Shown one piece after another: positions 14,349 through 38,838 of a DNA stretch of 64,000 nucleotides. This stretch comes from an uncultured Gemmataceae bacterium (lineage in GTDB: Bacteria > Planctomycetota > Planctomycetia > Gemmatales > Gemmataceae): the NCBI GenBank assembly GCA_963750165.1, contig CAVVPN010000004.1:96001-160000 (forward strand). The letters run 5' to 3'. The translations under genes and the position numbers were made by a program. The first letter of the stretch is position 1; every line of letters begins with the position of its first letter. The notes under the pieces are model-generated. The model had not been told where the DNA came from. It saw nothing but the letters and a program-made list of their open reading frames with translations, and made no database searches.

Positions 14349-14349
14349 C

Positions 14350-18819: not shown

Positions 18820-19619
18820 TCGCCGCCCTCATCCTGACACTCGGAGCCGGCGCCGTGTGGGGTCAGTCCGCGCTGCCGCCCGCCCTCCGCGGCGTGGACT
18901 TCGAGCAAAAGCTCGACGCCCAGCTGCCCCTGGACCTGGCCTTCCGCGACGAGGCTGGGCGCGACATCACCCTGCGCGAGTACTTCGACGGCAAGCCGGT
19001 GATCCTGGTGCTGGCCTACTTCCGCTGCCCGATGCTTTGTGACCAGGTGCTCAACGGAATGGCACGGGCGATGCTCGATCTGCCCTTCGACGCCGGCAAG
19101 GAGTACCGCGTCCTGACCGTCAGCTTCGACCCGGAGGAGACGCCGGAGATGGCGCGGGCCAAGAAAAAAACTTACCTCGATCGCTACGGCCGGCCCGGGG
19201 CCGCTGACGGCTGGCACTTCCTGACAGGCTCGGCCGAGTCGATCCGACGCCTGACCGACGCCGTCGGCTTTCGCTACCGCTGGGACGAACGCCACCAGCA
19301 GTATGCGCACGCCGCCGGCATCGTCGTGCTCACTCCGTCCGGCAAGGTGTCGAAGTACTTTCGCGATGTCCGCTATTCGCCGCGCGACCTCCGACTCGGA
19401 CTGGTGGAGGCGTCGGAGAACCGCATCGGCACGCCCGCCGACCAGGTACTGCTGTTCTGCTTCCACTATGACCCGGAGGAAGGCCGCTACGGGCCGGCGG
19501 TCATGAACTTCGTGCGGCTTGGGGGCGTGCTGACGGTGCTCGGCGTCGGCGTGTTTGCGCTCGTGCTCTGGCGCCGTGAGTGGCGGCGGGCCCGGCGGCC
19601 GGCGGTGGAGGTGAAGTGA
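18804..19619 (+). CDS. SCO1/SenC copper chaperone
   Basis: Signal peptide, YFRCPMLC (CxxxC), SFDP, conserved His in YAHAA, C-terminal TM. Confidence 0.92.
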   Translation: MVRPLIAALILTLGAGAVWGQSALPPALRGVDFEQKLDAQLPLDLAFRDEAGRDITLREYFDGKPVILVLAYFRCPMLCDQVLNGMARAMLDLPFDAGKEYRVLTVSFDPEETPEMARAKKKTYLDRYGRPGAADGWHFLTGSAESIRRLTDAVGFRYRWDERHQQYAHAAGIVVLTPSGKVSKYFRDVRYSPRDLRLGLVEASENRIGTPADQVLLFCFHYDPEEGRYGPAVMNFVRLGGVLTVLGVGVFALVLWRREWRRARRPAVEVK

Positions 19620-20623
19620 TGTTCGCCGAGATCATCTGGTTCCCGCGGCAGGGCTCGACCACCGCCCACGATGTGGACGCGCTGCTGATCGGCTTGCTGA
19701 CCGTCACCGGCGCGGTGTCGCTGCTGGTGGCCTGTCTGCTCATCGGTTTCGCCGTCCGCTACCGCCGCCGGCCCGACACCCCGACCCCCGACCCGCACCA
19801 ACCGAACGTCTTGCTCGAGATGTTCTGGACCCTGACCCCCCTGGCCATCTTCCTGTTCTTCTTCGCCTGGGGCGTGAAGGTCTACTTCGGCGCCTACCGT
19901 GCCCCGGACGACGCCCAGGTGGTCTACGGCGTCGGCAAACAGTGGATGTGGAAGTTCCAGCACCCCGGTGGCCAGCGCGAGATCAACGAACTGCATGTCC
20001 CAGTCGGCCGGCCGGTCAAGGTCGTGCTCACCTCCGAGGACGTGATCCACAGTTTCTACGTGCCCGAGTTCCGCGTCCACATGGACGTGCTGCCGGGCCG
20101 CTACACGACCGTCTGGTTCGAGGCGACCGAGCCCGGCACCTACAAGCTGTTCTGCTCGCAGTACTGCGGCACCAACCATGCCGGCATGATCGGCACCGTC
20201 GTCGCCATGAAGCCGGCCGACTACGAGGCGTGGCTGCATGGCCGGGCCGAGGGGTCACAGGCTCTGGAGGGCCGCAAGATTTTTCTCAAGTACCGCTGCC
20301 TCAGTTGCCACAGCGCCGACGAGTACGCCCGCGCCCCGGTGCTGGAGGAACTGTACGGCAAGCGCATCCCGCTCACCAACGGCGCGACGGTCCTCGCCGA
20401 CGAGGACTACCTCCGCGAGTCCGTCTACGAACCGGGCAAGCAGATCGTGGCGGGCTGGCGCAACATCATGCCGAGCTTCAAGGGCCAGGTGACCGAGTCC
20501 GAGATGGTCGAGTTGATCGCCTACCTCCGTTCGCTGCGCCGCGGCCAGACGCCCCGCCGCGTCGAGGACTATCCGCCGCCCGTGACCACGCCCCCCATTA
20601 ACCCGAAGGGAACCCGGCCATGA
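19619..20623 (+). CDS. ctaC: cytochrome c oxidase subunit II with fused cytochrome c (caa3 type)
   Basis: [24 protein letters not shown]uA site, C-terminal CLSCH and MP. Confidence 0.95.
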
Positions 20624-22275
20624 GCACGGCGCAGGCAGAAGCCCGGCACTTCACCCCGCCGCCCCGACCCGAGCCGCCGCGCGAGACATACCTCAACGTC
20701 GCGCACGGCGTGCTCTCCTGGCTGCTCACCAAGGACCACAAGCGCATCGCCATCCTCTACCTGGTCACGTTGACGGTCACGTTCTTCATCGGCGGCGCCT
20801 TCATCACCGTGGTGCGGCTGAACCTGATGACGCCGGACGGCAGCCTGGTCACGGCGGACACATATAACCGACTGTTCACGATGCACGGCGTCATCATGGT
20901 GTGGTTCTTCCTGGTGCCGGTGGTGCCCACCGTCCTGGGCAACTTCATCCTGCCGCTGATGATCGGGGCCAAGGATCTGGCCTTCCCGCGGATCAACCTG
21001 CTTAGCTGGTATCTGTTCACGGCCGGGGCGGCCTACTCCATGATCGCCATGCTCGCCGGCGGCCTGGACACTGGCTGGACGTTCTACACGCCCTACTCGA
21101 CACAGTTCTCCAACTACAACGTCGTCCATGTGCTGATCGGCATCGTCATCTCCGGGTTCTCGTCGATCGTGACGGGGCTGAACTTCATCATCACGATCCA
21201 CCGCATGCGCGCCCCGGGACTGACCTGGTGGCGGCTGCCGATCTTCGTCTGGACGCTGTACGCGACCAGCTTCATCCTCATCTTCGCCACCCCAGTGCTG
21301 GCCATGGCTCTCACTCTGCAAATCGTCGAGCGGCTGTGGGGCATCGGCATCTTCGACCCGGCGCTGGGCGGCGACCCGCTGCTGTTCCAGCATTTGTTCT
21401 GGTTCTACTCGCACCCGGCCGTCTACATCATGATCCTGCCCGGCATGGGGATCATCAGCGAGGTGATCACGTGCTTCTCGCGCAAGAACATCTACGGCTA
21501 CACGATGGTGGCGCTGTCGAGCTTCGGGATCGCCATGGTAGGGTTCCTGGTGTGGTCGCACCACATGTTCGTCGCCGGCATTTCCGTCTACGCGGCCATG
21601 ATCTTCTCGCTGCTCAGCTACTTCGTAGCGGTGCCGTCCGCCATCAAGGTGTTCAACTGGACGGCGACGCTCTACAAGGGTTCGGTGTCGTTCGAGGCGC
21701 CGATGCTGTACGCGCTGGGCTTCATCTGCCTGTTCACGGCGGGCGGGGTGACGGGGCTGTTCCTGGCGTGCCTGGGTATGGACATGCACGTGCATGACAC
21801 CTATTTCGTGGTGGCCCACTTCCACTTCATTATGGTCGGCGGCATGGTCCTGGCCTACATGGCGGGACTGCACTACTGGTGGCCCAAGATCACGGGCCGG
21901 ATGTACAACGATTGGTGGTCGAAACTCGCGGCCATCATCATCTTCGTCGGTTTTTTCCTGACGTTCCTGCCGCAGTACCTGCTCGGCTACGCCGGCATGC
22001 CGCGCCGCTACCACCATTACCCGGCGGAGTACCAGGTGTGGAACGTCATGTCCTCGGCCGGGGCGTCCATCCTGGGCGTCGGCTATGTACTACCACTGTT
22101 CTACCTGCTCGGTTCGCTGGTTTGGGGCAAGAAGGCGGGGCCGAACCCGTGGCACGCGACCGGCCTGGAGTGGCAGACGCCATCGCCGCCGCCGCGCGAC
22201 AACTTCGCCGAAACCCCGACCGTCGTCCGCGGGCCGTACCAATACCATCTGGAGAAGGCGCAAAATGAGCCGTGA
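20620..22275 (+). CDS. ctaD: cytochrome c oxidase subunit I (A2 type)
   Basis: [23 protein letters not shown] (YS motif), WSHHM, AHFH, GMPRR. Confidence 0.97.
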
Positions 22276-22993
22276 TCTGAGCGTCCTGACGCCCGAGGAA
22301 CGTGACGAACTGAATCTGACCGTCCTGGTGCGCGACCAACTGGAGGAGCAGTATGCGGACCTTGGCCAGCAGCACGAGACGGCGTCGCTGGGCATGTGGG
22401 TGTTCCTGGCCAGCGAGGTGCTGTTCTTTGGCACGCTGTTCCTGGGCCTGTTGACGTACCGCTACCTGTACGCCGAGGCGTTCGAGGCGGGCAGCGAGAA
22501 GCTCTGCTGGCAGATCGGTGGCGGCAACACCATCGTCCTGCTGGTCAGCAGCCTGACGATGGTGCTCGCCATGCACTACGCCAGGCTCGGCAAGCGCACG
22601 CCGTTGCTCTGGTTCCTGGCGCTGACGGCCCTGCTCGGCCTGACCTTCCTCTGCCTGAAGGGCCTGGAGTATTACATCGACTTTCAGGAGAACCTGGTTC
22701 CGGGCTTCCAGTTCGACGAGTCGGAGTGGACGCGGCAGGGGCTGGAGCCGCACCAGGTACAGCACGTCAAGCTGTTCCTGATCTTTTACTGGGTGATGAC
22801 CGGGCTGCACGCCCTGCACATCACCGGCGGCATCCTCACTCTGGTGGTGCTGTTCGTGCTGGCCCGCAAGAACTACTTCTCGAAGGAGTACTACTCGCCC
22901 GTGGACGTGGCCGCCCTGTACTGGCACTTTGTGGACATGGTGTGGATCTTTTTACTGCCGTCACTGTACCTGCTGGGCACGCACCACCTTTGA
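22265..22993 (+). CDS. ctaE: cytochrome c oxidase subunit III
   Basis: [25 protein letters not shown]. Confidence 0.94.
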
Positions 22994-23007
22994 GCGGGAG
23001 GGTTCCC

Positions 23008-23313
23008 GTGGCCGAGAAAATCATCAGCGTCCGGACGTACTCCCTCGTCTGCGGAGCGCTCATTGTGTTGACGGTGGCGACGGTGGCGATCTCGTTCGCG
23101 CCCCTGCTGGGCATCTGGCACCTGCTCATCGGCCTGCTGATCGGTCTGACCAAGGCGGTCCTGGTGGCGGCGTTCTTCATGCACCTGGTGTACGGCAACC
23201 GCCTGACGTGGATCGTCGTCAGCGTGACGGTTTTCTGGCTGGCGATCCTGGTGTCGCTGACGCTGACGGACTATTTCAGCCGCGGCCTGGTGCCATACAT
23301 GCCGGGACACTGA
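23008..23313 (+). CDS. ctaF: cytochrome c oxidase subunit IV
   Basis: GTG start after GGGAGG; three TM; KAVLVAAFFMHL. Confidence 0.9.
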   Translation: MAEKIISVRTYSLVCGALIVLTVATVAISFAPLLGIWHLLIGLLIGLTKAVLVAAFFMHLVYGNRLTWIVVSVTVFWLAILVSLTLTDYFSRGLVPYMPGH

Positions 23314-24167: not shown

Positions 24168-25682
24168 ATGAAGCGTCATGTGCTCCTCACCGGCTCCACC
24201 GGGTTTCTCGGCCGCTATCTTCTGGGAGAACTGCTCCGCTGCGACACCCCGGTTGCGGTTCTGGTACGTGACGGCTCCGGCCAACCCGCCCGGGATCGGT
24301 TAGCCGCCATCCTCGAAGACTGCCATCGGAGATACGGCCGACGCTTCCCCCCTCCCGTCCTCCTGTGCGGCAAACTCGTCCCCGAAGCAGTCGGCCTGGA
24401 CGCCACGGATCGGCAGTGGTTGGGCCGGCACATCAGGGCCGTCCTGCACGCGGCCGCCAGCGTTGCCTTTCGGTCCAACTCCGAAGGCGAACCACGGCGG
24501 ACCAACGTCGAGGCGACACAAGCCCTGCTCTGCCTGGCGGAATCCCTGGGCATTCGCGAATGGCACCAGGTCTCCACCGCCTTTGTTTGTGGGTGCCGCG
24601 GCGGCGTGATCCGTGAGGATGACCTGGGGTGCGGTCAGCAATTCCACAACGCTTATGAGCAGAGCAAACACGACGCCGAGGTGCTGCTCCGCCGTGCGCC
24701 CGGCGTATGCGTCACGGTGTATCGCCCGTCCGTGATCGTCGGCGACCACCACAGCGGGGCCACCAGCAGTTACGAGGGTTTTTACCGCTTCCTCGCCCTG
24801 GCCGCGCGACTGGCCGGGCCGCAGGCTGCTCAGGGAACCCGCCGGCCGTTGTCGTTGCGCCTGCCCGTCACGGGGGACGAACCGTGCGACCTGGTGCCAG
24901 TGGACTGGGTGGCCCGCGCTATCGCGGAACTGCTGAGGGACTGCCGCCACCACGGCCGCACCTTCCACCTGGTGGCGCGGCCCCCCACGCCGGGTCGCCT
25001 TGTGCAGGAAACCGCCGTCGAGGAACTGGGTCTGGAAGGGGTGAGCCTGGTCGGGCCCGGGGGGGTAACCGGCCCGAGCCGACTGGAAGAGATGTTCCTG
25101 GACGGAATGGGCGAGTATTGGCCCTACCTGACCGGCTCCGCCCGGTTCTGCGACCGCAACACCGCCGCGGCCCTGCCGCACCTGCCGCCGCCGCCGGTGG
25201 ACCGCCCCGCCCTCCAGCGCCTGATCCGCTTCGCCGTGGCCGACCACTGGGGCCGCCGGGGGCCGACTGCCGAACCTTGCTCCACGTCGTTTTGCACACG
25301 TTACCTCGAACAGACCTTCCCCGAGCTGGCCCGTCATTCACCGCTGGCCCGGGCGGTTGGCCTGGAGGTGGCGGTCGGCTTCGACGTGCGTGGCCCGGGC
25401 GGCGGCCGGTGGTCCTGTCGCTGGGAGGGCGGCGAGTTCCGCGGGGTGAGCCGTGGCCTGGGCCCCAATGCGGCAGCGGTCTACCACACGGACCCGGCGA
25501 CCTTCGAGGCCGTGGCCAGCGGCCGCTGTGCCGCCCAGCAGGCGTTCTTCGAGCGGCGTATCGAGGTCACCGGGGACCTGGAAACCGCCCTCAAGCTGGT
25601 AGTACTCTTCGAGCAATTTCTCCGTGAAACCGGAAACCCCGTCGCCCCCCCTGAGGAGGCGGTGCGTGCCACCTACGCTTGA
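24168..25682 (+). CDS. extended SDR (thioester / fatty acyl-CoA reductase-like) fused to C-terminal SCP2-like lipid-binding domain
   Basis: LLTGSTGFLG, HAAA, VSTAFVCG, YEQSK (YxxxK), YRPSVIVG, VPVDWVA; C-terminal AFFERRIEVTGDLETALKL. Confidence 0.82.
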   Translation: MKRHVLLTGSTGFLGRYLLGELLRCDTPVAVLVRDGSGQPARDRLAAILEDCHRRYGRRFPPPVLLCGKLVPEAVGLDATDRQWLGRHIRAVLHAAASVAFRSNSEGEPRRTNVEATQALLCLAESLGIREWHQVSTAFVCGCRGGVIREDDLGCGQQFHNAYEQSKHDAEVLLRRAPGVCVTVYRPSVIVGDHHSGATSSYEGFYRFLALAARLAGPQAAQGTRRPLSLRLPVTGDEPCDLVPVDWVARAIAELLRDCRHHGRTFHLVARPPTPGRLVQETAVEELGLEGVSLVGPGGVTGPSRLEEMFLDGMGEYWPYLTGSARFCDRNTAAALPHLPPPPVDRPALQRLIRFAVADHWGRRGPTAEPCSTSFCTRYLEQTFPELARHSPLARAVGLEVAVGFDVRGPGGGRWSCRWEGGEFRGVSRGLGPNAAAVYHTDPATFEAVASGRCAAQQAFFERRIEVTGDLETALKLVVLFEQFLRETGNPVAPPEEAVRATYA

Positions 25683-26376
25683 CCTGATCCCGGTCGTGGA
25701 AGACCTCTTGTTCTCGTCCGGGCCGAATCGACTGCACGGCCGGCTGGCCTACCCCGAGGACGGACCTGTCTGCGGCGCCGCGGTGCTGGCCGGTCCCCAC
25801 CCGTTGCTGGGCGGCCACATGGACAACAACGTGGTGCGTGCCCTGGCGGAAGGGCTGGCTTGCCGTGGCCTGGCCACCCTCCGGTTCGACTACCACGGGG
25901 TCGGACGCAGCGAAGGGCCACCGGCGGACCTGACGCGGCACCTGGCCGCGTTCTGGCGGACCGGGCACGCGCCCGACGAACTGGGTATGGCCCGGGAGGT
26001 GGAGGCCGCCGCGGCGCAACTGCGGCAGGCCACCGGACCCAGGCCGCCACTCGCCTTGATCGGCTACAGTTTCGGCTGCGCCCTGCTGCCCCACACCCAC
26101 CTGCCCGGCACCGAGTCTCGGCCCCCGCTGATCCTCATCGCCCCAACCACGGCCCGCCACGACTACTCCCCGTACCAGTCCCTGGAGAACCCCATGCTGG
26201 TGATCGCTTCCGCCGGCGACTTCGCCTCGGACGCCGGCCGACTCCGACACTGGTTCGGTGGCCGTCCGGCCCCGAGCCGACTCATCGAGCAGCCCCTGGA
26301 CAACCATTTCTTCCGCGGCCACGAGGCGTGGCTGGTCGAGACGGTGTCCGAGTATCTCAACGGCCTGTGGGGGTGA
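25666..26376 (+). CDS. alpha/beta hydrolase
   Basis: PHPLLGGHMDN, LRFDYHGVGRSEG, GYSFG nucleophile elbow, downstream Asp (GDF) and His (NHFF); GTG after GAGGAGG. Confidence 0.85.
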   Translation: MPPTLDLIPVVEDLLFSSGPNRLHGRLAYPEDGPVCGAAVLAGPHPLLGGHMDNNVVRALAEGLACRGLATLRFDYHGVGRSEGPPADLTRHLAAFWRTGHAPDELGMAREVEAAAAQLRQATGPRPPLALIGYSFGCALLPHTHLPGTESRPPLILIAPTTARHDYSPYQSLENPMLVIASAGDFASDAGRLRHWFGGRPAPSRLIEQPLDNHFFRGHEAWLVETVSEYLNGLWG

Positions 26377-26380
26377 TTCC

Positions 26381-27484
26381 ATGCCAACACAGATTGAGCC
26401 GCCCGGAACGCTCCCCGACACCCGTCTGCGGGAGCTGCTGGGCCTGCACTTCCACCCGGAACTGGGCAGCAGTTACTGGCTGGACCGTCAGGATCGTCTC
26501 GGCTGGGACATCCGCGACCGCGTGCGCACGCTGGAGGACCTGTGGCTGCTCGGACCGACGCCGCCCGGGGACCTGCGCCGATACCCGGTCAGCGCCTTCA
26601 TCCCGCGCGGCCTCCACGCTCAGCGTTTCCGCTTCATCGTCGGCGAGACCGCCGGCACCAGCGGCGGGCCATGTGGGACGGCGTACCGGGACGACGAGTT
26701 CCAGGCCGCCTTCATCGACCCGTTCCTGCGTGTGGCCGCCGCCACCGGCTTCCCGCGCGGCGAACCGTGGCTGTGGGTCGGCCCGTCCGGCCCGCACATC
26801 ATCGGCAAGGTGGTGCGCAAGTTGGCCCGACAGACGGGCAGCATGGACCCGTTCAGCGTGGACTTCGACCCGCGCTGGGCCAGGCGGCTGGCCGAGGGCA
26901 GCGTGGCCCGGCAGCGCTACCTCGACCACGTCACCGACCAGGCATTGGACGTTTTCCGCCGTGAGGAGGTCGGCGTGCTGTTCATCACGCCGCCGGCACT
27001 GAGTGCCCTGGCCGCGCGGCTCACGGACCGGGAGCGCGAGGCGATTCACGGTGTCCACTACGGCGGCATGAGTCTGGCCCCCGAGGCGGTCAATCGCTTC
27101 CGCGCGCAGTTTCCGAACGCCGTCCATCTGGCCGGTTACGGCAACACCCTGTTCGGGGTGGTCATGGAGGTGGCGGACGTGACCCGCACCGCCCTCGACT
27201 ACTTCCCCCTGAGCGACCGCCTGAGCTTTCACGTCGTCGAGTGGTCCGAGTCCGCGACCAGGACCCCGTGGCCGCCGCGGCCGTGTCGGCGCGGGGAGAC
27301 GGGCCGCGTGGTGTTCCATCGCCTGGATGAGAGTTGCCTGCTGGCGGGCGTGCCGGAGCGCGACCAGGCCGAGCGGATCAGTCCGAGTGCCGCGGCCCGT
27401 GCCCTCGGCGGCGCGGCCGAGGGCCTGCGCAACCCTCAGCCCCCCGCCCACCTGGCCGGTCGCTTGCAGACCGGGATTTACTGA
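26381..27484 (+). CDS. EhpF/PaaK-like adenylate-forming enzyme (short ANL-superfamily member)
   Basis: HFHPELGSSYW, ETAGTSGGP P-loop-like motif, GPSGPH, DFDPRW, GYGNTLFG, ERD. Confidence 0.65.
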   Translation: MPTQIEPPGTLPDTRLRELLGLHFHPELGSSYWLDRQDRLGWDIRDRVRTLEDLWLLGPTPPGDLRRYPVSAFIPRGLHAQRFRFIVGETAGTSGGPCGTAYRDDEFQAAFIDPFLRVAAATGFPRGEPWLWVGPSGPHIIGKVVRKLARQTGSMDPFSVDFDPRWARRLAEGSVARQRYLDHVTDQALDVFRREEVGVLFITPPALSALAARLTDREREAIHGVHYGGMSLAPEAVNRFRAQFPNAVHLAGYGNTLFGVVMEVADVTRTALDYFPLSDRLSFHVVEWSESATRTPWPPRPCRRGETGRVVFHRLDESCLLAGVPERDQAERISPSAAARALGGAAEGLRNPQPPAHLAGRLQTGIY

Positions 27485-27511
27485 GCGCCCGCCACGGTCA
27501 AGGAGGATGGC

Positions 27512-28408
27512 ATGCCGCACACGAGGCCGCTGAACGTCGCCTACACCCCGGACAGTGACGACGCCTTCTACTACGACGCTCTGGAGTCGGGACGGGTGAC
27601 CCTGCCCGGTTATCGACTGTGCTTCCACCGCGCGCCCATGTCGGTGCTCAACCGCGCCGCCCTCCGCGGCCGGTACGAGGTGACGGCCATCTCCTCGGTT
27701 GTCTACCCGCAGATCGCCGAGCGCTACAGCATCCTGAGTGTCGGAACCAGTGTCGGCCGCGGCTACGGCCCTGTCCTGGTGGCCCGGGAGGCTGTGCCCC
27801 TGCCGGACCTGGCCGGCCGCCGAGTCGGGGTGGGCGGCATCCCGACCACGGGCTGGTTCCTGCTGCGCGTGCTGTGCCCGGACGCGGTCGCCGTGGAACT
27901 GCCCTTCGACGAGATCGCCGACGCCGTCGCGGCCGGCGAACTGGACGCCGGCGTGATGATCCACGAGGAGTTGCTGTATTACCCGAAGCTCGGTCTGCAG
28001 CGCGTCGCGTGCCTGGGGGCGGAGTGGTGCCGGCAACACGGACTGCCGCTGCCGGTCGGTCTGAACGTCATCCGCCGCGACCTCGGCGCGGGCCCGATGC
28101 AGCGCGTCGCCGCCGCCCTTCGCCGCAGCCTGCGGCACGGCCTGGATCACGCCCGGGACACCCTCGGCCGCGTCAACCGCTTCGGCCGCGGCCCGGTGGG
28201 CGGTGTCACGGAGCAGTTCGTGTCGATGTTCGCCAACGAGGACTCGGTGTGCATGCCGGCCGACGTGCGCAACGCCCTGCGGGTGCTGTTCAACCAGGTC
28301 GTGGACCAGGGCCTCGCCGCGACCGTGCCGCCCATCGACATCATTGAGGGCATCACCCCGGCCGTTCCCTGCGACGCGACCGTAGTCAGCCACGGGAGGG
28401 CTTCGTGA
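27512..28408 (+). CDS. MqnD-like (MqnA/MqnD substrate-binding-fold) protein
   Basis: TPDSDDAF, LN..A, AIS, SVGRGYGP, FDEI..AV..G..DAG..IHE, W...GLPLP.G. Confidence 0.78.
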   Translation: MPHTRPLNVAYTPDSDDAFYYDALESGRVTLPGYRLCFHRAPMSVLNRAALRGRYEVTAISSVVYPQIAERYSILSVGTSVGRGYGPVLVAREAVPLPDLAGRRVGVGGIPTTGWFLLRVLCPDAVAVELPFDEIADAVAAGELDAGVMIHEELLYYPKLGLQRVACLGAEWCRQHGLPLPVGLNVIRRDLGAGPMQRVAAALRRSLRHGLDHARDTLGRVNRFGRGPVGGVTEQFVSMFANEDSVCMPADVRNALRVLFNQVVDQGLAATVPPIDIIEGITPAVPCDATVVSHGRAS

Positions 28409-29640
28409 TGAACCTGGCGCAACAGTTGGTGGCCCGCAAGCGGGAGTACCTCGTCCCCTGTGTGTATCACTTCTACCAGCGGCCGCCGGTGCTCGTGCGC
28501 GGCGAGGGAGCCTATCTCTTCGACGCCGCGGGCCGGCGCTACCTGGATTGTTACAGTGGCGTCAGTGTCGTGAACGCCGGCCACTCGAACCCGGACATCA
28601 TTGAGCCGGCCATCGAGCAGCTGCGACGGCTGCAGCACACGACCACCATTTACCTGACCGAGCCGATGCTGGAGTTGGCCGAGGCCATCGCCGGCCTGGC
28701 CCCTTCCCCCCTCCGCCGGACGTTCTTTTGTGCCAGCGGCAGCGAGGCCAACGAGGGGGCGCTGCTGCTGGCGTCCCTGGCCACGGGCCGCAAGGAGTGT
28801 GTCTACCTCCGGGAGGGGCTGCACGGCCGGACCAAGTGGGCCATGAGCGTCACCGGCCTCGACCTGTGGCGGACGGACCTGAACCCGCTGGTGACGGCCC
28901 ACGGCGTCCCCGGCCCGCGGCACCCCGAGAGTCTGCCGGCGGTGGAGCGACTGCTGAGCCGCGGCACCGTGGCGGCGGTGATCGCCGAGCCGATCCAGGG
29001 CAACGGTGGCATCGTCGTGCCGCCCGAGCACTACTGGCCGGAACTGCGCCGCCTGTGCAGCCGGCATGGCACGCTGCTGATCGCCGACGAGGTGCAGACC
29101 GCCTGGAACCGCACGGGCCGGTGGTTCGCCACCGAACACTGGGGTGTCGTGCCGGACGTGGTGACGGTGGCCAAGGCCCTGGGTAACGGCTTCCCCATCG
29201 CGGCCTACCTGACCAGTGACGCCGTCGCCGCTCACTATACCCGTCCCGGGGCCGCCACCTTCGGCGGCAATCTGGTGTCCTGCCGTGCCGCCCTGGCGAC
29301 TCTGGACTATCACCGGCGTCATGGCCTGGGAGAGCGGAGCCGTGCCCTGGGTGCTCGGCTGTGCGAGTGCCTGCGAACGCTGCAGAACCGCGTACCTGAG
29401 ATTCATGAGATCCGGGGCCTGGGTTTGATGGTCGGCGTGGAACTGCGGGACAGCTCCGGCGCCCCCGCGGCTGACCTGCTCGACCGCGTGCTTGAGGCCC
29501 TGAAGGATGCCGGGTTCCTGGCGGGCAAGACGGGGCCTGGCCGCAACGTGCTCACCCTCATGCCGCCCCTGGTGGTGGAGGAGGTGGCCGTGGACGAGTT
29601 GGCTGATGAGGTGGGTCGCGTCCTGGCGGCACTCCGATAA
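28405..29640 (+). CDS. class III PLP aminotransferase
   Basis: YLDCYSG...GH, SGSEANE, HGRT, AEPIQG.GG, ADEVQT, AKALGNG (PLP Lys), TFGGN. Confidence 0.93.
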   Translation: MMNLAQQLVARKREYLVPCVYHFYQRPPVLVRGEGAYLFDAAGRRYLDCYSGVSVVNAGHSNPDIIEPAIEQLRRLQHTTTIYLTEPMLELAEAIAGLAPSPLRRTFFCASGSEANEGALLLASLATGRKECVYLREGLHGRTKWAMSVTGLDLWRTDLNPLVTAHGVPGPRHPESLPAVERLLSRGTVAAVIAEPIQGNGGIVVPPEHYWPELRRLCSRHGTLLIADEVQTAWNRTGRWFATEHWGVVPDVVTVAKALGNGFPIAAYLTSDAVAAHYTRPGAATFGGNLVSCRAALATLDYHRRHGLGERSRALGARLCECLRTLQNRVPEIHEIRGLGLMVGVELRDSSGAPAADLLDRVLEALKDAGFLAGKTGPGRNVLTLMPPLVVEEVAVDELADEVGRVLAALR

Positions 29641-29799
29641 CTGCCAGTCTTGACTGAATCCCCGACTCCGCCACGGCGACCCGCCCCGCCGTGGCGGAAT
29701 TCGGGGTTGACGCCATCCCGGATCCAGGCTATTCCCCCTTCACCAAAGTCAATAGCCCGGTTCGCTCCTCGCCACACTCCTCGCCGGGAGGCGATGATC

Positions 29800-30924
29800 A
29801 TGAATAGTCAGGGGGCGCGCCGCTGTCGGCGTCTCGTCACCGGGATGGTGCTGGGGTTGGGACTGCTGGTCTGTGGCTGCAAGGCCATCACGGAGCACTT
29901 CTCGCAACGGCTGACGCACTGGAAAATGCTGGGGGACGACGCTCTGGAAGACCCCGTCAAGGCGGTCGGCGGCGACGCCCTGGTGTTCGTGCCCCGGGAA
30001 TTGGACCGGCCCCTGAGTCGCCAGCAACTCCGGACGGCACCCCCGGAAACACTGGTCAGCTACTACTCCCCCGTCTTCGTGCAACAGCGCATCGACACCC
30101 GCGCCCAGCGCTTCCCGTACCCCCCGGAGTACGACACCATCGGCGAGGCCCGGTTGAAGCGCGAGCCCGACGGCAAGCTCAAGTCCTACGTGACCGGGCA
30201 GCCGAAGGTCTACGCCATCTGCAAGCAGACGCTCATTGAGGGGCGGCCGCACTTCCAGCTGACCTACACGGCCTGGTATCCCGCCCACCCGCGCATGAAG
30301 ACGCTTGACGTGGAGGAGGCGGACATCGACAGCTGCGTCCTGCGCGTCACCCTGGACACCGACAACGCGCCGCTGTTCTACGAGACCATCGCGGCCTGCG
30401 GCTGCTTCCACAAGGTCTTCCTCCCGCGCCGCCTTGAGATGGGCGCCCGGGAGGCGTACGGCACCCCGCAGCAGGGCAAGAAATACTGTGCCGAGCGCGT
30501 CGTCGAGAACGCGGTGGACTGGGAGGTGGCGGGCCTGGTGGACGAACCGCCGGACCAGCCGCGCCGGCCCGTGGTCTTCCTGAAGGCGGGCGACCACAAG
30601 GTTATCGGCATGGGCAGCACCGCCCGACTGCGCATGCCAGCCGAGAAGTACAGCACCCCTTATGAAATGACCTCCTACGCCGACCTGTACGCCGTGGCCA
30701 TCGACGGCACTCAGGAGACGGCCGCGTTCTTCGACATGGACGCGGGCGGCAAGGTGCGCGGCGGCGAGCGCAAGCGGGAACGGTTCCTGATGTCGTTCAT
30801 CGGCGTGGAAGACGCCGGCCGGCCGCGCGCCGACGACCAGATCAAATTGCACTTCGACCAGAGTACCTGGAACGACCCGACCGCCTACGGCAAATTCCTT
30901 CGTCTCGCGCCCGGGGCCCTGTGA
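29800..30924 (+). CDS. putative lipoprotein of unknown function
   Basis: GGGAGG RBS, basic N-terminus plus hydrophobic stretch ending LVCGC; internal CGCFH motif. Confidence 0.72.
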   Translation: MNSQGARRCRRLVTGMVLGLGLLVCGCKAITEHFSQRLTHWKMLGDDALEDPVKAVGGDALVFVPRELDRPLSRQQLRTAPPETLVSYYSPVFVQQRIDTRAQRFPYPPEYDTIGEARLKREPDGKLKSYVTGQPKVYAICKQTLIEGRPHFQLTYTAWYPAHPRMKTLDVEEADIDSCVLRVTLDTDNAPLFYETIAACGCFHKVFLPRRLEMGAREAYGTPQQGKKYCAERVVENAVDWEVAGLVDEPPDQPRRPVVFLKAGDHKVIGMGSTARLRMPAEKYSTPYEMTSYADLYAVAIDGTQETAAFFDMDAGGKVRGGERKRERFLMSFIGVEDAGRPRADDQIKLHFDQSTWNDPTAYGKFLRLAPGAL

Positions 30925-30961
30925 CCTCGAAAAGAAACTCCCCGCCGTCAGGAGGTCGCCA

Positions 30962-31705
30962 ATGTCGCAGGCATTTCGGACCGAGGATTTCACCCAGGCG
31001 CTTTTGGTCGTCCGTGGACTGAGCCGTGAACACGGTTCAGCGGCGACCCGGGTCAGCGCGCTCCGCGGGGTGGACCTGGACGTGTACCCGGGCGAGTTCG
31101 TGGCGGTCACCGGCGCCTCGGGCTCAGGCAAGAGCACACTGCTGCACCTCGTCGCTGGGTTGGACCGGCCGACCGCAGGCAGCATCCGACTGCGGGGCGT
31201 GGACGTGGCGGCCCTCGGCGAGGACGACCGGGCACGTCTGCGGCGCCGGCACATCGGGATGGTGTTCCAGTCCTTCCACCTGCTGGAGACGCTTACCGCC
31301 GAGGAGAACGTGGCCCTGGCCCTGGCCATCGCGGGCCGCCCGCCCGTGGAGGCGCGGCGGCAGGCAGCGCGGTGGCTGGGTTACGTCGGGCTTGCTTCCC
31401 GGCGCACGCACCGGCCGCACGAACTCTCCGGGGGCGAACAGCAGCGCGTCGCCGTCGCCCGTGCCCTGGTGATCGAACCGACCTTGTTGCTCGCCGATGA
31501 ACCCACGGGCAATTTGGACAGTCACCAGGGCGAGCGCGTCCTGGACCTGCTCCGCCAGGTGACCGACGAACGCCGGCAAACTCTGATCCTGGTGACCCAC
31601 GACCCGAGGCACGCCGCCCGGGCGGACCGTGTCATTTTCTTGCACGACGGCCGTATCTCCGCCCCGGCAGGGCACAGCCTGGGTTTGCCCGCCACCGCGG
31701 CCTGA
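30962..31705 (+). CDS. ABC transporter ATP-binding protein (LolD/MacB-like)
   Basis: [33 protein letters not shown]. Confidence 0.95.
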
Positions 31706-31732
31706 GCGTCTCGGGGACGGAGGCCCTCCCTC

Positions 31733-34225
31733 ATGAGACTGTGGACATTCTCCGCGCGCGAATTCGGGCGGCGGCGCGGCCGCATGCTGCTGACCCTTGC
31801 CGGCATCGCCCTGGGCATCGCGGCCGTGGTGGCCACGCGCCTGACCATTCACTCCGTCCGCGCTGCCTACGCGGACCTGTACGGGACCACCGGGCGGGCG
31901 CAACTTGAGGTGAGTGCCCTGGGCGGGGGAGGCTTCGACGAGGCCCTCGCCGACACGTGCTCCTCGGTTCCGGGAGTCGGAGCGGTCGTGCCCCGTGTTG
32001 TAGGCGTGGTCGCCCTGCTTGGGCCGAAGGGTCGAATGCCCGTGCTCATCCAGGGAAAAAGCGTTGAGGGCACGGCGGCCGGCGACACCTGGATTTGTTG
32101 CCAGGGTCATTGGCCCAGCGGGGGCGGGGAAGCTTTGCTGGACTCCGGGATGGCTGACCGTCTCGGCCTGCACCCAGGAAACCGAGTCTTGCTCTGGGCG
32201 CCTTCCGGGGCGGCGGAACTTTCCCTGGTGGGGCTGCTGCGGCCGGCGCGGCCACGCGCCATGGGTGGCAACCTGATCGTTACGTTCGAGACGGCACGCA
32301 ACCTACTGGGGTTGGGCGCGCAAATCAACAACCTTGAGATTTCCCTCGACCGCGGGGCCGACCCGGATGCCGTCCGAAGAGCCCTCGAACGCCGTCTTCC
32401 ACCAGGGTTGGTGGTAGCCGAGGTGGGCCACGGGGACCAGCTCGCCCGGGGGACACTGGCACCGACCGAGCAGGGACTTTCGGCACTGGGAACAGTGGCC
32501 CTGGTGGCGGCTGCCTTTGTGTTGCTGAACACCGCGTTGTTGAGCCTTCATGAGCGCCGTCGAGACCTGGCCCTTTTGCGGGCACTCGGCACCGGCCGCT
32601 GGCAACTCTGGTGGTTGCTCACCCGCGAGGCAGTGGTGCTGGCCGTCCCGGGCACCCTGGCCGGCCTGGGCCTCGGTCTGATGATGGCGTGGGGCCTTGT
32701 CGCCGCCATGCGAGAGTTCCTGGATGCCCCGCTGGGGGGGCTGATCCTCACTCCTGAGCCCTTCCTGCTCGGTTCAGTGCTCGGGCCAGGACTGACCCTC
32801 GGAACCGCCGCCGTCCCCGTCTGGTGGACCGGCCGCCACAGTCCCCTTGGCGACCTCCTCATGAAGAGGCCAGTCGCGAACCGCACCAGTGGCCTGCCGA
32901 CCTGGTTGGACTGCGCCTTGCTGGGCGTGGGCCTCTGCCTGGCATTCGGCATTTGCCGAGGCTGGTTCCCGCCTACCGCGGCGGCCGGCATGTTCCCGTC
33001 AGTGTTGGTGATCCTCCTGGCCGGGAGCGCCTTGAGTGTTCCCCTGGTGACGACCCCTTTGCTCTGGCTCGCGGGCAAAGCGCCCCTGGGACTGGAGTTC
33101 CGACTCGCTGCTGGGCAACTCCTGCAGCGCCCGGGCGCACCCACCTCATTCTGGGAGTGCTCTTCCTGTCCGTGGTGGTGGCCGTGGGCTTTGGCCACGA
33201 GGTTGGAACCACGCTGCGCGACCTGAGGCAATGGTACCGGCACACTATCGTCGCAGATTTCCTGGTCCGCAGTAGCATGCCGGATACCACGTTCTCCCTG
33301 ACCACAGCCATGCCGGAAAGCCTTGGCGACGACCTCGCGCACTCGGTGCCGGGTGCCATCGTTGACCGGATTGCCTTTATCCCGGGCAAGGTAGGAGAAG
33401 AGCCTGCCCTGGTGATTGCCCGAACCTTCTTGCCCGGGGGACCGTTGCCATTGGACCTGCAGGGGGAGGACCCAGGGGCCGTCCTGGCCGGGTTGGAACG
33501 CGGCGAGGTGGTGCTGGGGACGGCGCTACGCGCGGCGGCTTGGCGTGTCTCGCGGCGGGGTGGTCCAGGTAGCCACACGGTACGGTCCGCACGCCTGTCG
33601 GGTGGCGGGCCTGACCAGGGAGTTCGCTGCCGGAGGCTCTGCCCTGTACCTCAACTGGGACCACGGCCGGGATCTGCTGGGGGTTAACGGGCCTCACGTC
33701 TTCCTGGTCCGTTTGCCACACGGGGAACCGGCGGTGGGCGCGCTATGGGATTTCTGTGAGAGCCGCCATTTGATGCTGGAGTCCAACGCCCAACTGGCCC
33801 ACCAGATCGATCAACTGGTGGCGCGCGCCGCCGCGGCTCTGTGGTCACTCCTCGCAGTGGCGTTCCTCGTCACCGGCCTGGGGATCCTTAACACCTTGAC
33901 CGTGAACGTCGCTGAGCAGGCCAGGGATTTCGGATTGCTACGCGCCCTGGGGTTGACTCGACTGCAGACGTGTTGGGTGGTCCTGGGCCAGGCCCTCCTG
34001 CTTGGCATGGCCGGATTGCTGCCGGGTCTTCCTGTGGGTCTGGTGCTGGCCTGGTTCATGCGCCACGGCGCGGTGGGCGGCGGAGGGAACACCTGCGTCA
34101 ATCCCGATCCTACGGTCCTGATTGGAACGGCCGTGGGGACACTCGTGGTCACCGTGGTGGCGACGCTTGGGCCGGTCCTCCGTGTCAGCCGGCGGTTGAG
34201 CATGGAGATGTTGGCAGATTCCTGA
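31733..34225 (+). CDS. FtsX/MacB-like ABC permease (two-module); frame breaks near 33140 and 33530
   Basis: R.LLTL.GIALG, ERRRDLALLRALG, second module with FGLLRALG; spread over three overlapping ORFs. Confidence 0.82.
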
Positions 34226-34596: not shown

Positions 34597-36708
34597 TTAC
34601 TTGCCCTTCGGCGGCGTGCGCGACAGCAGCAGCAGCGTGCCGGCCGTGGCCACGAACGTCCGCGGCCGCGCCTTCTCGGCGTCGGCGACCACCATGCCGT
34701 TCTGGGCCACCTTGAGCCGGGCCCCCAGGCACAGTTGCAGGTCCTGCCCCTGGAAGCGATAAATGCCCGGCTCCTGGAACCCCGGTTTGGGCGGAAACAC
34801 GTCGAACTTCTTCGGCTCCACGAGCGGATCGATCTTGAGGAAGCACGTCTCGGCCCCGCCGTCGCCGCCGTGGTGCAGCGTCACGGTCTGGCCGACCACG
34901 ACCACCTTCAGCCCCACCGGATAGGCCGCGCCCTTGCCGGCCGCCGAAGTCGTTTTGACATACCAGGTGCCCTGCAACAATTCCTGCTCTTTCTTGAGAA
35001 TGGCCACCACGTCCACCACCGGCTTCGGCGCCGCCGGCTTCTCCAGGATGCGCACGTCCTGCACGACGCTCGGGCCGGCACTGGACTTGACCTTGAACTG
35101 GGCCACGCCCTTACGCTCCGCACGCACTTTCCAGGTCACCGCCGTGAGCGGATTGGCCACCGTATCCTTATCGGGGGGCAGCATGACGACGGCCCGGGTG
35201 GCGTCACCCTCAATGACCAGGCCCTTCGGCACCGCCAGCGTCAACTTCTGCCCCGGCTTCGCCGCCGCCACCAGCGCCACCACCTCCGCCTGGCCGCCCT
35301 CGTAGAGCTGGCCGCCGACCACCAGGCCCAGCGCGCCAGTCTTGTCGCCGGCGTAGTTGCCCAGGCCGTAGCTGAAGCCGACCTCGCGCTTCGCCCCGGG
35401 TGCCAGCGGCTTCGCGTCCCAGTACAGCACGGCGGCCGAGTCCGGCGGCGTCAACGCCTTCATGGACACCAGCGGCACGTTCCACTGCGTCTTCTCGCCG
35501 CCAGCCTCCTTCAGCCCCAGCATCGGGCTCGGCCACGCCCCCAGCGTCACCCGCGTCGGCGCCTCCACCGTCCCGCCCAGCTTCAGCTTGACGCTCGCCA
35601 CCGTGCCCGGATCCTGCAGCCGTTTCGGGTTCTCCAGCGCTTGCAGAAACGGCGGTATCTGCTCGCCCTTCAGGTCGAGCAGCGTTTCGCACAGCGCCGT
35701 GTGGCCGGGCACCACGAACGGCGCCCCGTCGTTGGTGCCGATGTAGGTGTCCAGCAGAAACCGCAGCCCCACCTTGTAATCCCGTTTCTTGCTGGTGTTC
35801 TCGATGGTGTACAGCACCTGGCAGGTGTCGAGCTTGCGCGTCTGTTCGCCGCGCACCAGCTCGACCGTTTGCGTCACGCGGATGGGCAGGTCGTCGGTCG
35901 TCCACACCGAGCGGGCGCCGATGCGGTCGCGACCCAGCGGCAGTTTCTGCACCTCCCAGCGGCCGCCGCTCACGCCCAGCACCAGTTCCACACCATCGAC
36001 CTTCAGACAGGTGTTGCAGGAGCGGCCCAGCGGGTCCGCCAGCAGACGCTTGAATTGACCCGGCTGCATCGGATCGGGTTGCGGCGGCAGCAGCTGCAGG
36101 CCGAAGCGCATCGTTGGCTCTTTCAGCATCGGGTCGCCTTCGTGGAACTGCAACTTGAGATACTGTTTGGTGTCGAAGACTTCCGGCACGTCGCGGATGG
36201 GCGGCATCGGATCCCGCTTGGCCGTGAGCGCGGCGAGGCGCTGCTTGACGGCCGCGGCGGACTCGCCCTGCAAGCCGGGCAGCGCCTTTTTGTACCAGTA
36301 CACGGCCCGCTCCTGTAGTCGCTGTTTCGCGTCGCCGGCCTCCGCCTGGGCCAGCTCCCACCAGTCGTCGGCCAGTTCGCGGCGGTGTTCGGGGTGGGTC
36401 GGGCCGCGCACGTCGGCGCGGGCCAGCAGCTTGTAGCGCTGATCGCTGCTCTTCATCAGGTAAGGCAGGCCACGGTCCCAGTCGCCCAGCACCAGGCACA
36501 GGTACTTGCCGGCGGTCAGGTTCGCGGGGCCGTCCGCGGGCGCCTTGGCCAGCACGGCGAGCGCCTTCTGGTACGCCGCCTCCGCCTGCTGTTTCTGCTT
36601 GTCGCCGACGGGCTGCGCGACGGCGCCGAGCCAGGCACCGCCCAGGAACAGGGCGGCCAGAATGAACACACGGCTGCAGCGGAGCGCGGCGGCCTCCAGT
36701 GACTTCAT
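34597..36708 (-). CDS. secreted multidomain protein (helical N-domain, uncharacterised beta domain, Ig-like domain, TIGR03067-like C-domain)
   Basis: GAGG RBS, signal peptide; GDWDRGLPYL helical region; LLDTYIGTNDGAPF core; LQGTW...KIDP...GIYR..G..L.LC C-terminus. Confidence 0.8.
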   Translation of the reverse strand: MKSLEAAALRCSRVFILAALFLGGAWLGAVAQPVGDKQKQQAEAAYQKALAVLAKAPADGPANLTAGKYLCLVLGDWDRGLPYLMKSSDQRYKLLARADVRGPTHPEHRRELADDWWELAQAEAGDAKQRLQERAVYWYKKALPGLQGESAAAVKQRLAALTAKRDPMPPIRDVPEVFDTKQYLKLQFHEGDPMLKEPTMRFGLQLLPPQPDPMQPGQFKRLLADPLGRSCNTCLKVDGVELVLGVSGGRWEVQKLPLGRDRIGARSVWTTDDLPIRVTQTVELVRGEQTRKLDTCQVLYTIENTSKKRDYKVGLRFLLDTYIGTNDGAPFVVPGHTALCETLLDLKGEQIPPFLQALENPKRLQDPGTVASVKLKLGGTVEAPTRVTLGAWPSPMLGLKEAGGEKTQWNVPLVSMKALTPPDSAAVLYWDAKPLAPGAKREVGFSYGLGNYAGDKTGALGLVVGGQLYEGGQAEVVALVAAAKPGQKLTLAVPKGLVIEGDATRAVVMLPPDKDTVANPLTAVTWKVRAERKGVAQFKVKSSAGPSVVQDVRILEKPAAPKPVVDVVAILKKEQELLQGTWYVKTTSAAGKGAAYPVGLKVVVVGQTVTLHHGGDGGAETCFLKIDPLVEPKKFDVFPPKPGFQEPGIYRFQGQDLQLCLGARLKVAQNGMVVADAEKARPRTFVATAGTLLLLSRTPPKGK

Positions 36709-37088
36709 GATGATTTCCTCGAAAACGGATCGCGTCGGGGCGGGGTTCGGGTGCTGGCTGTTCTCTGTCACTGTAGCGGCCCTGGCGGTCGCATTCAAGA
36801 AACTGTTGTGGCGCCGGGAGGGGCGTCTGCGCGAGTAGGGAGGGCATACCGGGCGGTGTCAAGCCGTGCCAGGGCGTCTGGTCTCGATGTACAAAAGTTT
36901 GGCACCCTTGGCACCCTTGCGCGGCCTGGCAATCGCCGGCACGCCGGGAAGCGTGCGTCCCGTCCCGAAACGGATTTCCAGAATTTTGTCCGGCAGGCCC
37001 TTGCTTGCCAGGGTGCGGACGCGGTAACATTGAATTTCACAATCACTCACTTCCCCCCGAGCTGTCCGATAATGCGAGGAGTTGAGGC

Positions 37089-38739
37089 ATGCAGGCGACT
37101 ACCAACGGCGCTGCGAAAACCTCGATGAACGAGGCCAACGAGCGCGACCCTTTCAACAACAACTCATACGGCACCATCGTCGATGGCGGCTACAAGCTGA
37201 TCAGCCTGCCGGTGCTGGATGTGCATGACTTCAACGAGCGCATCATCCGCGGCTACGAGGAGGGCTGGGGCGAGCACGACCTGCCGGCGGACCTGTCCAC
37301 GGCCCGCTCGCTGGTGCCCGCCGGCACCGCCACGCTGCGCGACTTCAGCAACATCGCTCCGGAAATCCCCGAATACATCCCCGAGAACTGCACCGGCTGC
37401 ATGGACTGCGTGACCGAGTGCCCCGACACCGCCATTCTCGGCAAGGTGCTCTCCGAGTCCGAGTGGCAGGAGAAGCTCCAGGCCATTCCCGAGGCGGATC
37501 GCGAGGCGTTCGCCAAGCTGTGGTCGAAGACCAAGAAGTACTATGACGCCGGCAAGAAGAAGGTCGGCGAAGGCGGCATGTTCCAGATCATCATCGACCC
37601 GTCCAAATGCAAGGGTTGCGCGGAGTGCGTCACCGTCTGCGACGACCTGGCGCTGAAGATGATCGAGAAGACCGACGACATCATGCTGTGGTCGCGCAAG
37701 GCGCACCGCTACTTCAAGAACCTTGGCCCGTCCAACGACAAGTACATCAGCGACAGCCTGCTGATCGACATGATGCTCAAGGAGAAGACGCACATTTACG
37801 TCGGCGGCGCCGGCTCGTGCGCCGGCTGCGGCGAGGGCACCGCGCTGCGGATGATGTGCTCCGCCACCGGCTCGAAGTACGGCGACCAGTGGGGCATCGT
37901 CGCCGCCACCGGCTGCAACACCGTGTACACCTCCACTTACCCCTACAACCCCTACCTGGTGCCGTGGACGAACTCGCTGTTCGAGAACGCGCCGGCGGAC
38001 GCCATCGGCGTGCGCATGCGCTGGGACCAGATGGGCTGGCAGGACAGGCCCATCTGGTGCATCGGCGGCGACGGCGCCATGTTCGACATCGGTTTCCAGG
38101 CGCTGTCGCGCATGCTGGCGAGCGGCCACAACATCAAGGTGCTCGTGCTGGACACGCAGGTGTATTCCAACACCGGCGGTCAGGCGTCCACGTCGAGCTA
38201 CACCGGCCAGAACACGAAGATGTCGGTGCATGGCAAGGCGGTGGCCGGCAAGCAGGAGCGGCGCAAGGAGATCGCGCAGATCGCCATGATGCACCCGCGC
38301 ACCTTCGTGGCCCAGACGACCTGTGCCCACGTCAACCACTTCTACAAGTCGGTGCTGGGGGCGCTGGAGTTCGACGGCCCGGCGCTGGTGGTGTGCTACA
38401 CGACCTGTCAGCCGGAGCACGGCGTCGGCGACAACATGGCCGGCGAGCAGGCCCGGTTGGCGGTGGACACGCGGGCCTTCCCGCTGCTGATCTTCGACCC
38501 CCGCAAGGGCGACAAGCTCAAGGAGCGGCTGTCGCTGCAGGGCAACCCCGGCGTGAAGGACGACTGGTACGTCAACCCCAAGACCAAGGAAGAGGTGACG
38601 TTCATCGACTTCGCGCAGCGAGGGCCGTTTCGCCAAGCACTTCGACAAGGACGGCAACCCGTCACCGACGCTGCTGCACGCGAAGCAGGATCGGCTGGAG
38701 AACTGGCATCTGTTGCAGGAGCTGGCGGGGCTCCGTTGA
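37089..38739 (+). CDS. 2-oxoacid (pyruvate):ferredoxin oxidoreductase ferredoxin + TPP-binding subunit; frame break near 38615
   Basis: CTGCMDCVTECP and CKGCAECVTVC, SCAGCGE, ATGC, NSLFEN, GGDGAMFDIG, YSNTGGQ; the C-terminus SEGRFAKHF...LQELAGLR* is in another frame. Confidence 0.9.
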
Positions 38740-38746
38740 ACCAGCG

Positions 38747-38835
38747 GTCAGAAGTCAGAGGTCCGAAAGACAGAAAAGCCAGCCTGACCTCTGACCTCTG
38801 ACCTCTGACCTCTGTCCTCTGACCTCTGATTTCTG
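38747..38835. repeat. heptamer tandem repeat with inverted partner
   Basis: About 7 x CTGACCT at 38784-38832, preceded by degenerate GTCAGAG units. Confidence 0.85.
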
Positions 38836-38838
38836 GTC

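Follow-up and report, generated by a model that had tools for sequence, protein, structure and literature searches.

What does a planctomycete make with an operon that combines enzymes for activating, reducing and aminating an acid with a copy of the menaquinone enzyme MqnD, and in which no carrier protein was found? The question is raised by eight plus-strand genes at positions 24168-34225 of the 64,000-nt stretch of DNA analyzed here (the window), which lies on contig CAVVPN010000004.1 in the 9.6 Mb genome of an uncultured Gemmataceae bacterium. A preliminary description of this DNA placed and labeled the genes, reported no nonribosomal peptide synthetase (NRPS), polyketide synthase (PKS) or acyl carrier protein (ACP), and proposed that an aromatic, naphthoate-like acid or a lipid acid passes through an aldehyde to an amine. 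Pfam and NCBIfam searches bore out the placements and family labels and gave zero matches to NRPS, PKS or ACP families among the operon proteins; a motif scan for small ACP-like open reading frames in 118 related loci returned a single match, non-acidic and due to chance. We found the same gene order in other genomes, indicating that the arrangement is far beyond chance, and the pathway is conserved, built from known enzyme families and apparently undescribed. The genomic evidence for a futalosine-derived substrate is good. Taken jointly, readings that link these genes to the futalosine (vitamin K2) route are in our judgment probable, and the one that we favor, a side branch in which naphthoate would undergo adenylation, reduction, amination and lipidation before export, is put forward tentatively.

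The operon is real and tightly packed. The reductase and hydrolase genes overlap by 17 nt, the hydrolase and EhpF-like genes are 4 nt apart, the EhpF-like and MqnD-like genes 27 nt apart, and the MqnD-like and aminotransferase genes overlap by 4 nt; gaps of 159, 37 and 27 nt then precede the genes for a lipoprotein, an ATPase and a permease. Neither a sigma-70-like promoter nor a sigma-54-like motif was found upstream. Most of the earlier gene models stand. The exceptions are the hydrolase, whose start is most likely GTG 25666, preceded by GAGGAGG, the lipoprotein, which most likely starts at ATG 29791 or 29800, and the permease, which is treated below as one gene.

How widely is this gene set (the module) kept? 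Carriers comprise 16 of 200 genomes of the host's own family (15 at E < 1e-100, one in fragments), 60 of 91 anammox-family genomes, and 12 further genomes from six families in a Planctomycetota sample of 401. The anammox count comes from a class-wide search around genome G326, in which the module was found in 33/47 genomes of family f35, 20/28 of f106, 2/2 of f105 and 5/14 of f89, and in 0/41 of other families. Hydrazine synthase was present in all five genomes checked from f35 and f89, f105 bears the name Ca. Anammoxibacter, and f106 is counted as anammox by inference. As far as their contigs extend, 14 of 14 non-anammox loci keep the hydrolase or MqnD-like neighbors in window order, so the co-conservation on which the preliminary description had staked its reading was indeed found. 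The established range of the module lies within Planctomycetota; plasmid matches were all distant (<60% identity), and ESM Atlas clusters, commonest in Thermodesulfobacteriota, serve as leads only.

Gene maps of the 118 loci, 45 of them well covered (at least 5 kb on either side), reveal a fixed core with interchangeable slots. Of the 45, 44 contain the aminotransferase, 42 the reductase and 35 the hydrolase. The first slot holds an MqnD-family gene in 49 of the 118 loci, a U32 gene in another 49, and never both; in 46 loci an MqnD-like gene comes directly after ehpF and in 45 a U32 gene, together 91 of 118. A second slot is taken by an MMPL transporter (26/45) or an ABC permease (5/45), never together, and a third by a lipoprotein gene (20) or by cytochrome b and multiheme cytochrome c genes (20), no locus being counted with both. 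Across the loci, the aminotransferase has been drawn from two subfamilies and so has the U32 protein, which suggests that function rather than lineage is kept. The placement of the SCP2 domain varies: it is fused to the reductase in the window, is free-standing in anammox loci, and sits on the EhpF-like protein in P0279, P0280 and P0288, above the Pfam cut-off. The MMPL protein has a weak HpnN match, and TAtT/TPR and LolA-like neighbors recur. Other accessory genes seen elsewhere encode a 200-aa protein without family (L103:285-917; 15 loci), a DUF1571/LolA-like protein (L006:3221-3994; 11 loci) and a DUF547 protein (L138:6151-7092; 4 loci).

One tie to futalosine chemistry is the MqnD paralogue (27512-28408, +; 298 aa), assigned by PF02621 (186 bits, above cut-off), a tree and its residues. 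Its matches to solved structures include 1ZBM (AF1704; E 2e-49) and TTHA1568 (E 2e-42). The genome has three PF02621 genes, and mqnA, mqnC, mqnE, an ordinary mqnD and one UbiD-family gene are located elsewhere; because MqnA and the ordinary MqnD are encoded there, the operon gene is an extra copy. At least three PF02621 matches, some of them fragments, occur in all 16 own-family carriers. In a quick tree the paralogues form a separate clade of 44 rows (some duplicates) with SH-aLRT support of 98, apart from the ordinary MqnD of their hosts, and their sister is an extra MqnD within the mqn cluster of genome G098. In MqnD, catalysis involves a core of Ile-His-Glu, Thr-Thr, Ser, Asn and Asp residues. 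The paralogue retains D17, N47, S61, T112, T113 and I150-H151-E152, with an invariant His-Glu core, and carries the fixed differences V63, G114, E153 (Gly to Glu), V182 and F240 (Tyr to Phe).

Linkage points the same way. Outside the host's family and anammox, the module lies within mqn clusters in three of 11 inspected carriers, representing three families: L187 reads ehpF-hydrolase-mqnE-mqnC-mqnA with overlapping genes, L059 reads ehpF-hydrolase-mqnE-mqnA/C, and L067/L186 reads aminotransferase-mqnB-mqnD. A divergent MqnD-family gene lies 4 kb off in L066, L016 has a menaquinone decarboxylase, above the cut-off of TIGR03701, 3.8 kb upstream, and a UbiD gene under cut-off is found near L001. 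MqnC/E was found in 41 of 41 carriers tested (28 plus 13), as opposed to 68 of 121 genomes in the phylum background, and likewise in five genomes reached via loci, some of them the same genomes. Spread over about eight lineages, this co-occurrence is modest support. The naphthoate branch of the earlier aromatic-or-lipid proposal is thus supported by mqn linkage, by a dedicated MqnD clade and by mqnC/E in all carriers tested.

The anammox version of the module, absent from the preliminary description, which is partly supported overall, differs in its slots. Its U32 protein joins a TrhP/UbiU-like half to a UbiV-like half, with a C-x6-C-x15-C-x3-C motif in the first half only, and scores under the cut-offs for UbiU (168 vs 440) and UbiV (91 vs 275). 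Cytochrome b and penta- and decaheme genes lie downstream of the module in anammox loci, and penta- and 22-heme genes do so in f25 and f58. At L050:14778-19256, L061:11289-14985 and similar places, split cytochrome b6-like genes stand with 5-, 10- and 5-heme cytochromes. A pentaheme cluster upregulated on electrodes is described in bioRxiv 10.1101/855817, and could not be mapped to a module locus. In one genome, a B12-binding radical S-adenosylmethionine (SAM) gene (L196:16417-17832) lies between the aminotransferase and cytochrome b genes.

MqnC/E is present in 90 of 91 anammox-family genomes, but MqnD was found in just 38, and the five contexts inspected all show an mqnB-mqnD pair; MqnD was not found in genus g133 (0/4, one a complete genome), f89 (0/14) or f105 (0/2). 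The idea that the module is a general stand-in for missing MqnD was rejected: among the 91 genomes, 34 have both, 26 the module only, four MqnD only and 27 neither, including near-complete G062 and G296. Another substitute, MqnZ, is the subject of a published proposal (PMC4746308).

Which chemistry could the remaining enzymes perform? The protein encoded at 26381-27484 (+; 367 aa) is predicted from phmmer and a tree to be an aryl-acid-adenylating enzyme of the EhpF/GriC/ThnN family of truncated ANL proteins. It lacks the usual C-terminal ANL domain, scores under the Pfam cut-off for AMP-binding (21.7 bits), matches EhpF (3L2K) at E 2.7e-27 over residues 16-334, and retains the EhpF segments GPH, DPRW, TPP, YG and ERD. 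The A3 motif is GTSGGPC versus GTTGAPK in EhpF, so the P-loop lysine is missing, as it is in 22 of 26 non-anammox relatives, which are all those with a readable A3 motif; anammox proteins retain it. Its homologues bear the JGI label ThnN, and the automatic name of the best ESM Atlas cluster, LuxE, is a lead only.

Operon-type EhpF-like proteins form their own clade in the tree (49 rows, support 0.93), apart from a paralogue paired with an aldehyde dehydrogenase (ALDH)-like protein. The genome has a second EhpF-like gene beside an ALDH-like gene, the usual GriC/GriD arrangement, and the operon copy is therefore a distinct paralogue. With the genome's own ALDH-like partner from L018 as query, no match was found in any of the 118 module loci. 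The second gene (G000:C3:1097761; L018:9726-14114) lies with ALDH-like and iron alcohol dehydrogenase genes, a context taken from one genome. Of 200 family genomes, 184 have an EhpF-like match, as do 20 of 20 genomes of family f2; the EhpF-like/ALDH-like pair would therefore seem to serve a core function in planctomycetes rather than antibiotic synthesis.

The first gene (24168-25682, +) encodes a 504-aa extended short-chain dehydrogenase/reductase (SDR) with an NAD_binding_4 domain of the R-domain or fatty acyl reductase-like type and a C-terminal SCP2 fusion, both above the Pfam cut-offs (PF07993, 137 bits; SCP2, 28.8 bits). Its nearest solved structure is the MxaA R domain (E 5e-21), and its TGxxGxxG, S136/T137 and Y163xxxK167 are kept across 60 homologues. 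With the TIGR01746 thioester-reductase domain it scores 114 bits, and its anammox counterpart 183 bits, versus a cut-off of 213, with catalytic residues kept; its best NCBIfam match is PRK07201, and it scores far under the MxcG and carboxylic-acid-reductase cut-offs. The second gene (25666-26376, +) encodes a 236-aa alpha/beta hydrolase (Hydrolase_4, 32 bits) with a predicted Ser-Asp-His triad, in which G-Y-S135-F-G, D185 and H214 are kept across 57 homologues. The 411-aa class III aminotransferase (28405-29640, +) matches PF00202 (Aminotran_3) at 311 bits with an intact pyridoxal phosphate site; D228, E229, Q231, K257 and T285 are kept across 49 homologues, and no NCBIfam cut-off was reached among its best 25 families.

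We infer the chemical steps that follow from the gene content, order, conservation, motifs and linkage observed. In the favored pathway the carboxyl of naphthoate would be kept and reworked instead of removed, giving a naphthoquinone with an amine and a lipid tail. The MqnD paralogue would convert the MqnC product to 5,8-dihydroxy-2-naphthoate or a closely related compound; the UbiU/UbiV-like U32 enzyme would occupy the same slot in anammox bacteria and hydroxylate the ring without oxygen. The EhpF-like protein would adenylate the aryl acid, the SDR, in the usual place of GriD or EhpG, would reduce the adenylate to the aldehyde, and the aminotransferase would yield an aminomethyl compound. The hydrolase may then transfer a lipid chain, with SCP2 as a non-covalent carrier, and an ABC or MMPL transporter would deliver the product to the envelope, where a lipoprotein or cytochrome b and multiheme c proteins would await it. 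A reductase paired with a class III aminotransferase takes an acid through an aldehyde to an amine. This logic and that of GriC/GriD are the reason why we favor the order naphthoate, aryl-AMP, aldehyde, aminomethyl compound. GriC makes an aryl-AMP, which is then reduced by GriD (PMC10179220).

Several observations weigh against this pathway. R-type reductase domains normally reduce thioesters, and nothing in the operon supplies one; there is no carrier or thiolation domain. The role given to the hydrolase is a guess, acyl transfer being the part that we infer. These two are its weak points. The window EhpF-like protein and its non-anammox relatives with a readable motif lack the usual P-loop lysine, and the acid-aldehyde-amine order of the preliminary description stays conjectural on three counts, the below-cut-off reductase score, the missing thioester source and this lysine. 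No prenyltransferase family occurs among the recurrent neighbors. Linkage to mqn genes is not constant: G073, a congener of G140, keeps mqnE-C-A on another contig, and three of the 45 well-covered loci lack both MqnD-like and U32 genes. In L068 the reductase is 7.6 kb from ehpF-hydrolase. Carriers are also kin, the 118 loci collapsing to 98, 28 and 8 groups at 95, 70 and 55% identity, so the counts overstate independence.

If the enzymes formed two converging arms, the weak points would be answered. The reductase-SCP2 protein and the aminotransferase would make a fatty amine from acyl-CoA or acyl-ACP, following the logic of TamH, and the EhpF-like protein and hydrolase would activate naphthoate and join it to that amine, giving a lipoquinone whose tail is non-isoprenoid, namely an N-alkyl naphthamide. 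The reductase would receive its thioester, all five enzymes would have roles, and a recurrent prenyltransferase would not be expected. The hydrolase gene adjoins ehpF in 56 of the 58 non-anammox loci that have both, in either order, ehpF-hydrolase continues directly into mqnE at L059 and L187, the reductase can be located apart, and SCP2 is fused to either enzyme. We consider this arrangement a close rival of the favored pathway, if unlikely in itself. Counting against it, the hydrolase is separated from ehpF in 12 of 12 anammox loci, no dedicated fatty-acyl supply genes recur as neighbors, EhpF/EhpG is an acid-reducing pair, and we know of no EhpF/GriC-family member that forms an amide. The characterized members of the family are acid-reducing pairs, such as GriC/GriD (PMC10179220). 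A pathway resembling that of Lux, in which a fatty acid released by the hydrolase is activated by the EhpF-like protein and converted, through the aldehyde made by the reductase, to a long-chain amine by the aminotransferase, with the MqnD-like protein as only a binding protein or passenger, is improbable. It would suit the lipid-related SCP2, MMPL (26/45 loci), TAtT/TPR and LolA-like features, the LuxE name and the PRK07201 match; however, it offers no account of the invariant His-Glu core of the MqnD paralogue, of the placement within mqn clusters in three cases or of the 41/41 co-occurrence, and the window EhpF-like protein has the GPH and DPRW segments in common with EhpF.

The module might instead lead to an altered membrane menaquinone for the adjacent cytochromes, one bearing a formyl, hydroxymethyl or aminomethyl group and no acyl chain. 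Its substrate would be a futalosine intermediate, either after prenylation by the ordinary prenyltransferase or at a prior stage, for example cyclic dehypoxanthine futalosine. The combination of SCP2 and a tandem U32 protein mirrors UbiT/UbiU/UbiV, which act on prenylated rings, and the cytochrome genes after the module in anammox, f25 and f58 and the menaquinone decarboxylase near L016 are in keeping with it. Yet the hydrolase is left without a role, the window version has a lipoprotein and an ABC exporter instead of cytochromes, and other copies were not seen to adjoin the respiratory cluster that lies upstream in the window; we regard this proposal as likewise improbable. Tailoring of hopanoid side chains or ladderane lipids is more improbable by far. 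The MMPL gene with its weak HpnN match, SCP2 and aminotransferase recall hpn genes, the window genome has hpnH, and the L196 radical SAM gene scores 351.7 bits versus 360 for ladderane-associated TIGR04072. The hopanoid version was largely refuted, as squalene-hopene cyclase was found in 31 of 41 carriers and not in the other 10, which include one complete one-contig genome and all seven of f25 and f58. The ladderane version was rejected, as the module is not restricted to anammox and is common outside it (16/200 own-family genomes). No type II fatty acid synthase, ACP or B12 radical SAM genes recur as neighbors, the L196 gene being the sole exception, and a term search of the available part of a ladderane candidate paper (PMC2649909) found no mention of aminotransferase, sterol or menaquinone.

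A bolder synthesis, which we hold to be doubtful, is that anammox bacteria and many other planctomycetes have a second, as yet undescribed class of redox lipid: a futalosine-derived naphthoquinone bearing nitrogen and an amide-linked, non-isoprenoid tail. It would be made without a carrier, finished by the MqnD paralogue or an oxygen-independent UbiUV-like enzyme, and exported by MMPL or ABC transporters to the co-encoded cytochrome b/multiheme c chain or lipoprotein, where it would carry electrons outside the cytoplasmic membrane. The route by which electrons pass through the membranes of anammox bacteria is stated to be unknown in bioRxiv 10.1101/855817.

Downstream of the five enzyme genes, a predicted lipoprotein (29800-30924, +) has a lipobox-like LVCG-C sequence, a conserved CGC-H motif and no Pfam family at E 0.05. 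Its alignment-based model (pLDDT 89.9) resembles a Nep1-like (NLP) beta-sandwich, with VIA Z-scores of 9.2 and 8.8 to 3ST1 and 9WSC and 3.2 for the next unrelated row; the best of these extends over 172 residues at a root-mean-square deviation of 3.8 and 11% identity, and the best Foldseek E value is 4.4e-3. An NPP1 Pfam match and the NLP heptapeptide, which we take to be the mark of that family, are absent from the sequence and its alignment. The shared fold shows no function, and lipid binding by the lipoprotein is a guess. A LolD/MacB-type ABC ATPase follows (30962-31705, +; LolD-like by TIGR02211, 228 bits, under cut-off, and by Pfam), and then a duplicated MacB/FtsX permease (31733-34225, +). 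This ABC pair likely exports the product. In tblastn with an intact 834-aa homologue, the permease is read in frames 2, 1 and 2, changing at about 33135 and 33529. Since other window genes also change frame, namely an ActD-like gene (near 15840) and a pyruvate:ferredoxin oxidoreductase-like gene at 37089-38801 (near 38615), these changes are likely assembly indels, and the permease is a single gene, probably split by assembly errors.

Upstream, positions 10579-23313 of the window hold alternative complex III-like genes, presumably Act genes as we label them, and after them SCO1 and the genes for cytochrome c oxidase subunits II, I, III and IV. A functional link between the module and this cluster was dropped, as the cluster was not seen adjoining other module copies. 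A minus-strand gene at 34597-36798 converges on the operon end and encodes a protein of 733 aa that is predicted to be secreted and carries a planctomycete TIGR03067 domain at its C-terminus. Elsewhere in the window are a gene for a small protein rich in YNPYTG repeats (about 7660-8147, +) and short tandem DNA repeats at 38750-39200, downstream of the oxidoreductase gene.

The preliminary description knew of no pathway with this gene set, and literature searching agrees: no description was found in full-text literature, where coverage of subscription papers is poor. Nor is the module described in the accessible portions of PMC13386864, PMC13524794, PMC13459092, PMC2649909, PMC10179220, PMC11278526, PMC3175449, PMC4746308, PMC3914697, PMC3655542, PMC12053348, PMC12078418, PMC9387917 and bioRxiv 10.1101/855817. 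The futalosine pathway is known as a menaquinone route, and a dedicated branch retaining the carboxyl carbon and introducing nitrogen would, if true, be new quinone chemistry. The module occurs, next to uncharacterized cytochrome b and multiheme c genes, in 60 of 91 anammox-family genomes; it offers five soluble enzymes and a substrate class for direct assay.

How does the module compare with known systems? GriC/GriD, known in the context of grixazone, EhpF/EhpG of D-alanylgriseoluteic acid and ThnN/ThnO share with it the truncated ANL family and the lack of a carrier protein. Unlike in GriC/GriD and EhpF/EhpG, its EhpF-family protein belongs to its own clade and is paired with a new type of reductase, an SDR/R-domain protein with SCP2 instead of an ALDH-like partner, and hydrolase, aminotransferase, an interchangeable MqnD or U32 protein and lipid export are added. 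Futalosine MqnD resembles the module copy in PF02621, above cut-off, and in the His-Glu core; the latter is by contrast an extra copy, in its own clade, with five fixed changes, and its gene neighbors specify enzymes for acid reduction and amination. MxcG/MxcL (myxochelin) and TamA/TamH (tambjamine) carry out reduction and transamination with an R-type reductase and a class III aminotransferase, as the module may do, whereas the module has a stand-alone reductase with SCP2 and neither NRPS nor ACP. The anammox variant combines SCP2, as in UbiT/UbiU/UbiV, with a tandem U32 protein that matches the UbiU and UbiV models with its two halves, but under both cut-offs; the window version has the MqnD paralogue in place of U32, and the host genomes use the futalosine route. 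Finally, the Lux operon also combines a hydrolase, a truncated adenylating protein and a reductase (LuxD, LuxE and LuxC), whereas the module has another reductase fold and no luciferase, and adds an aminotransferase and an MqnD or U32 protein.

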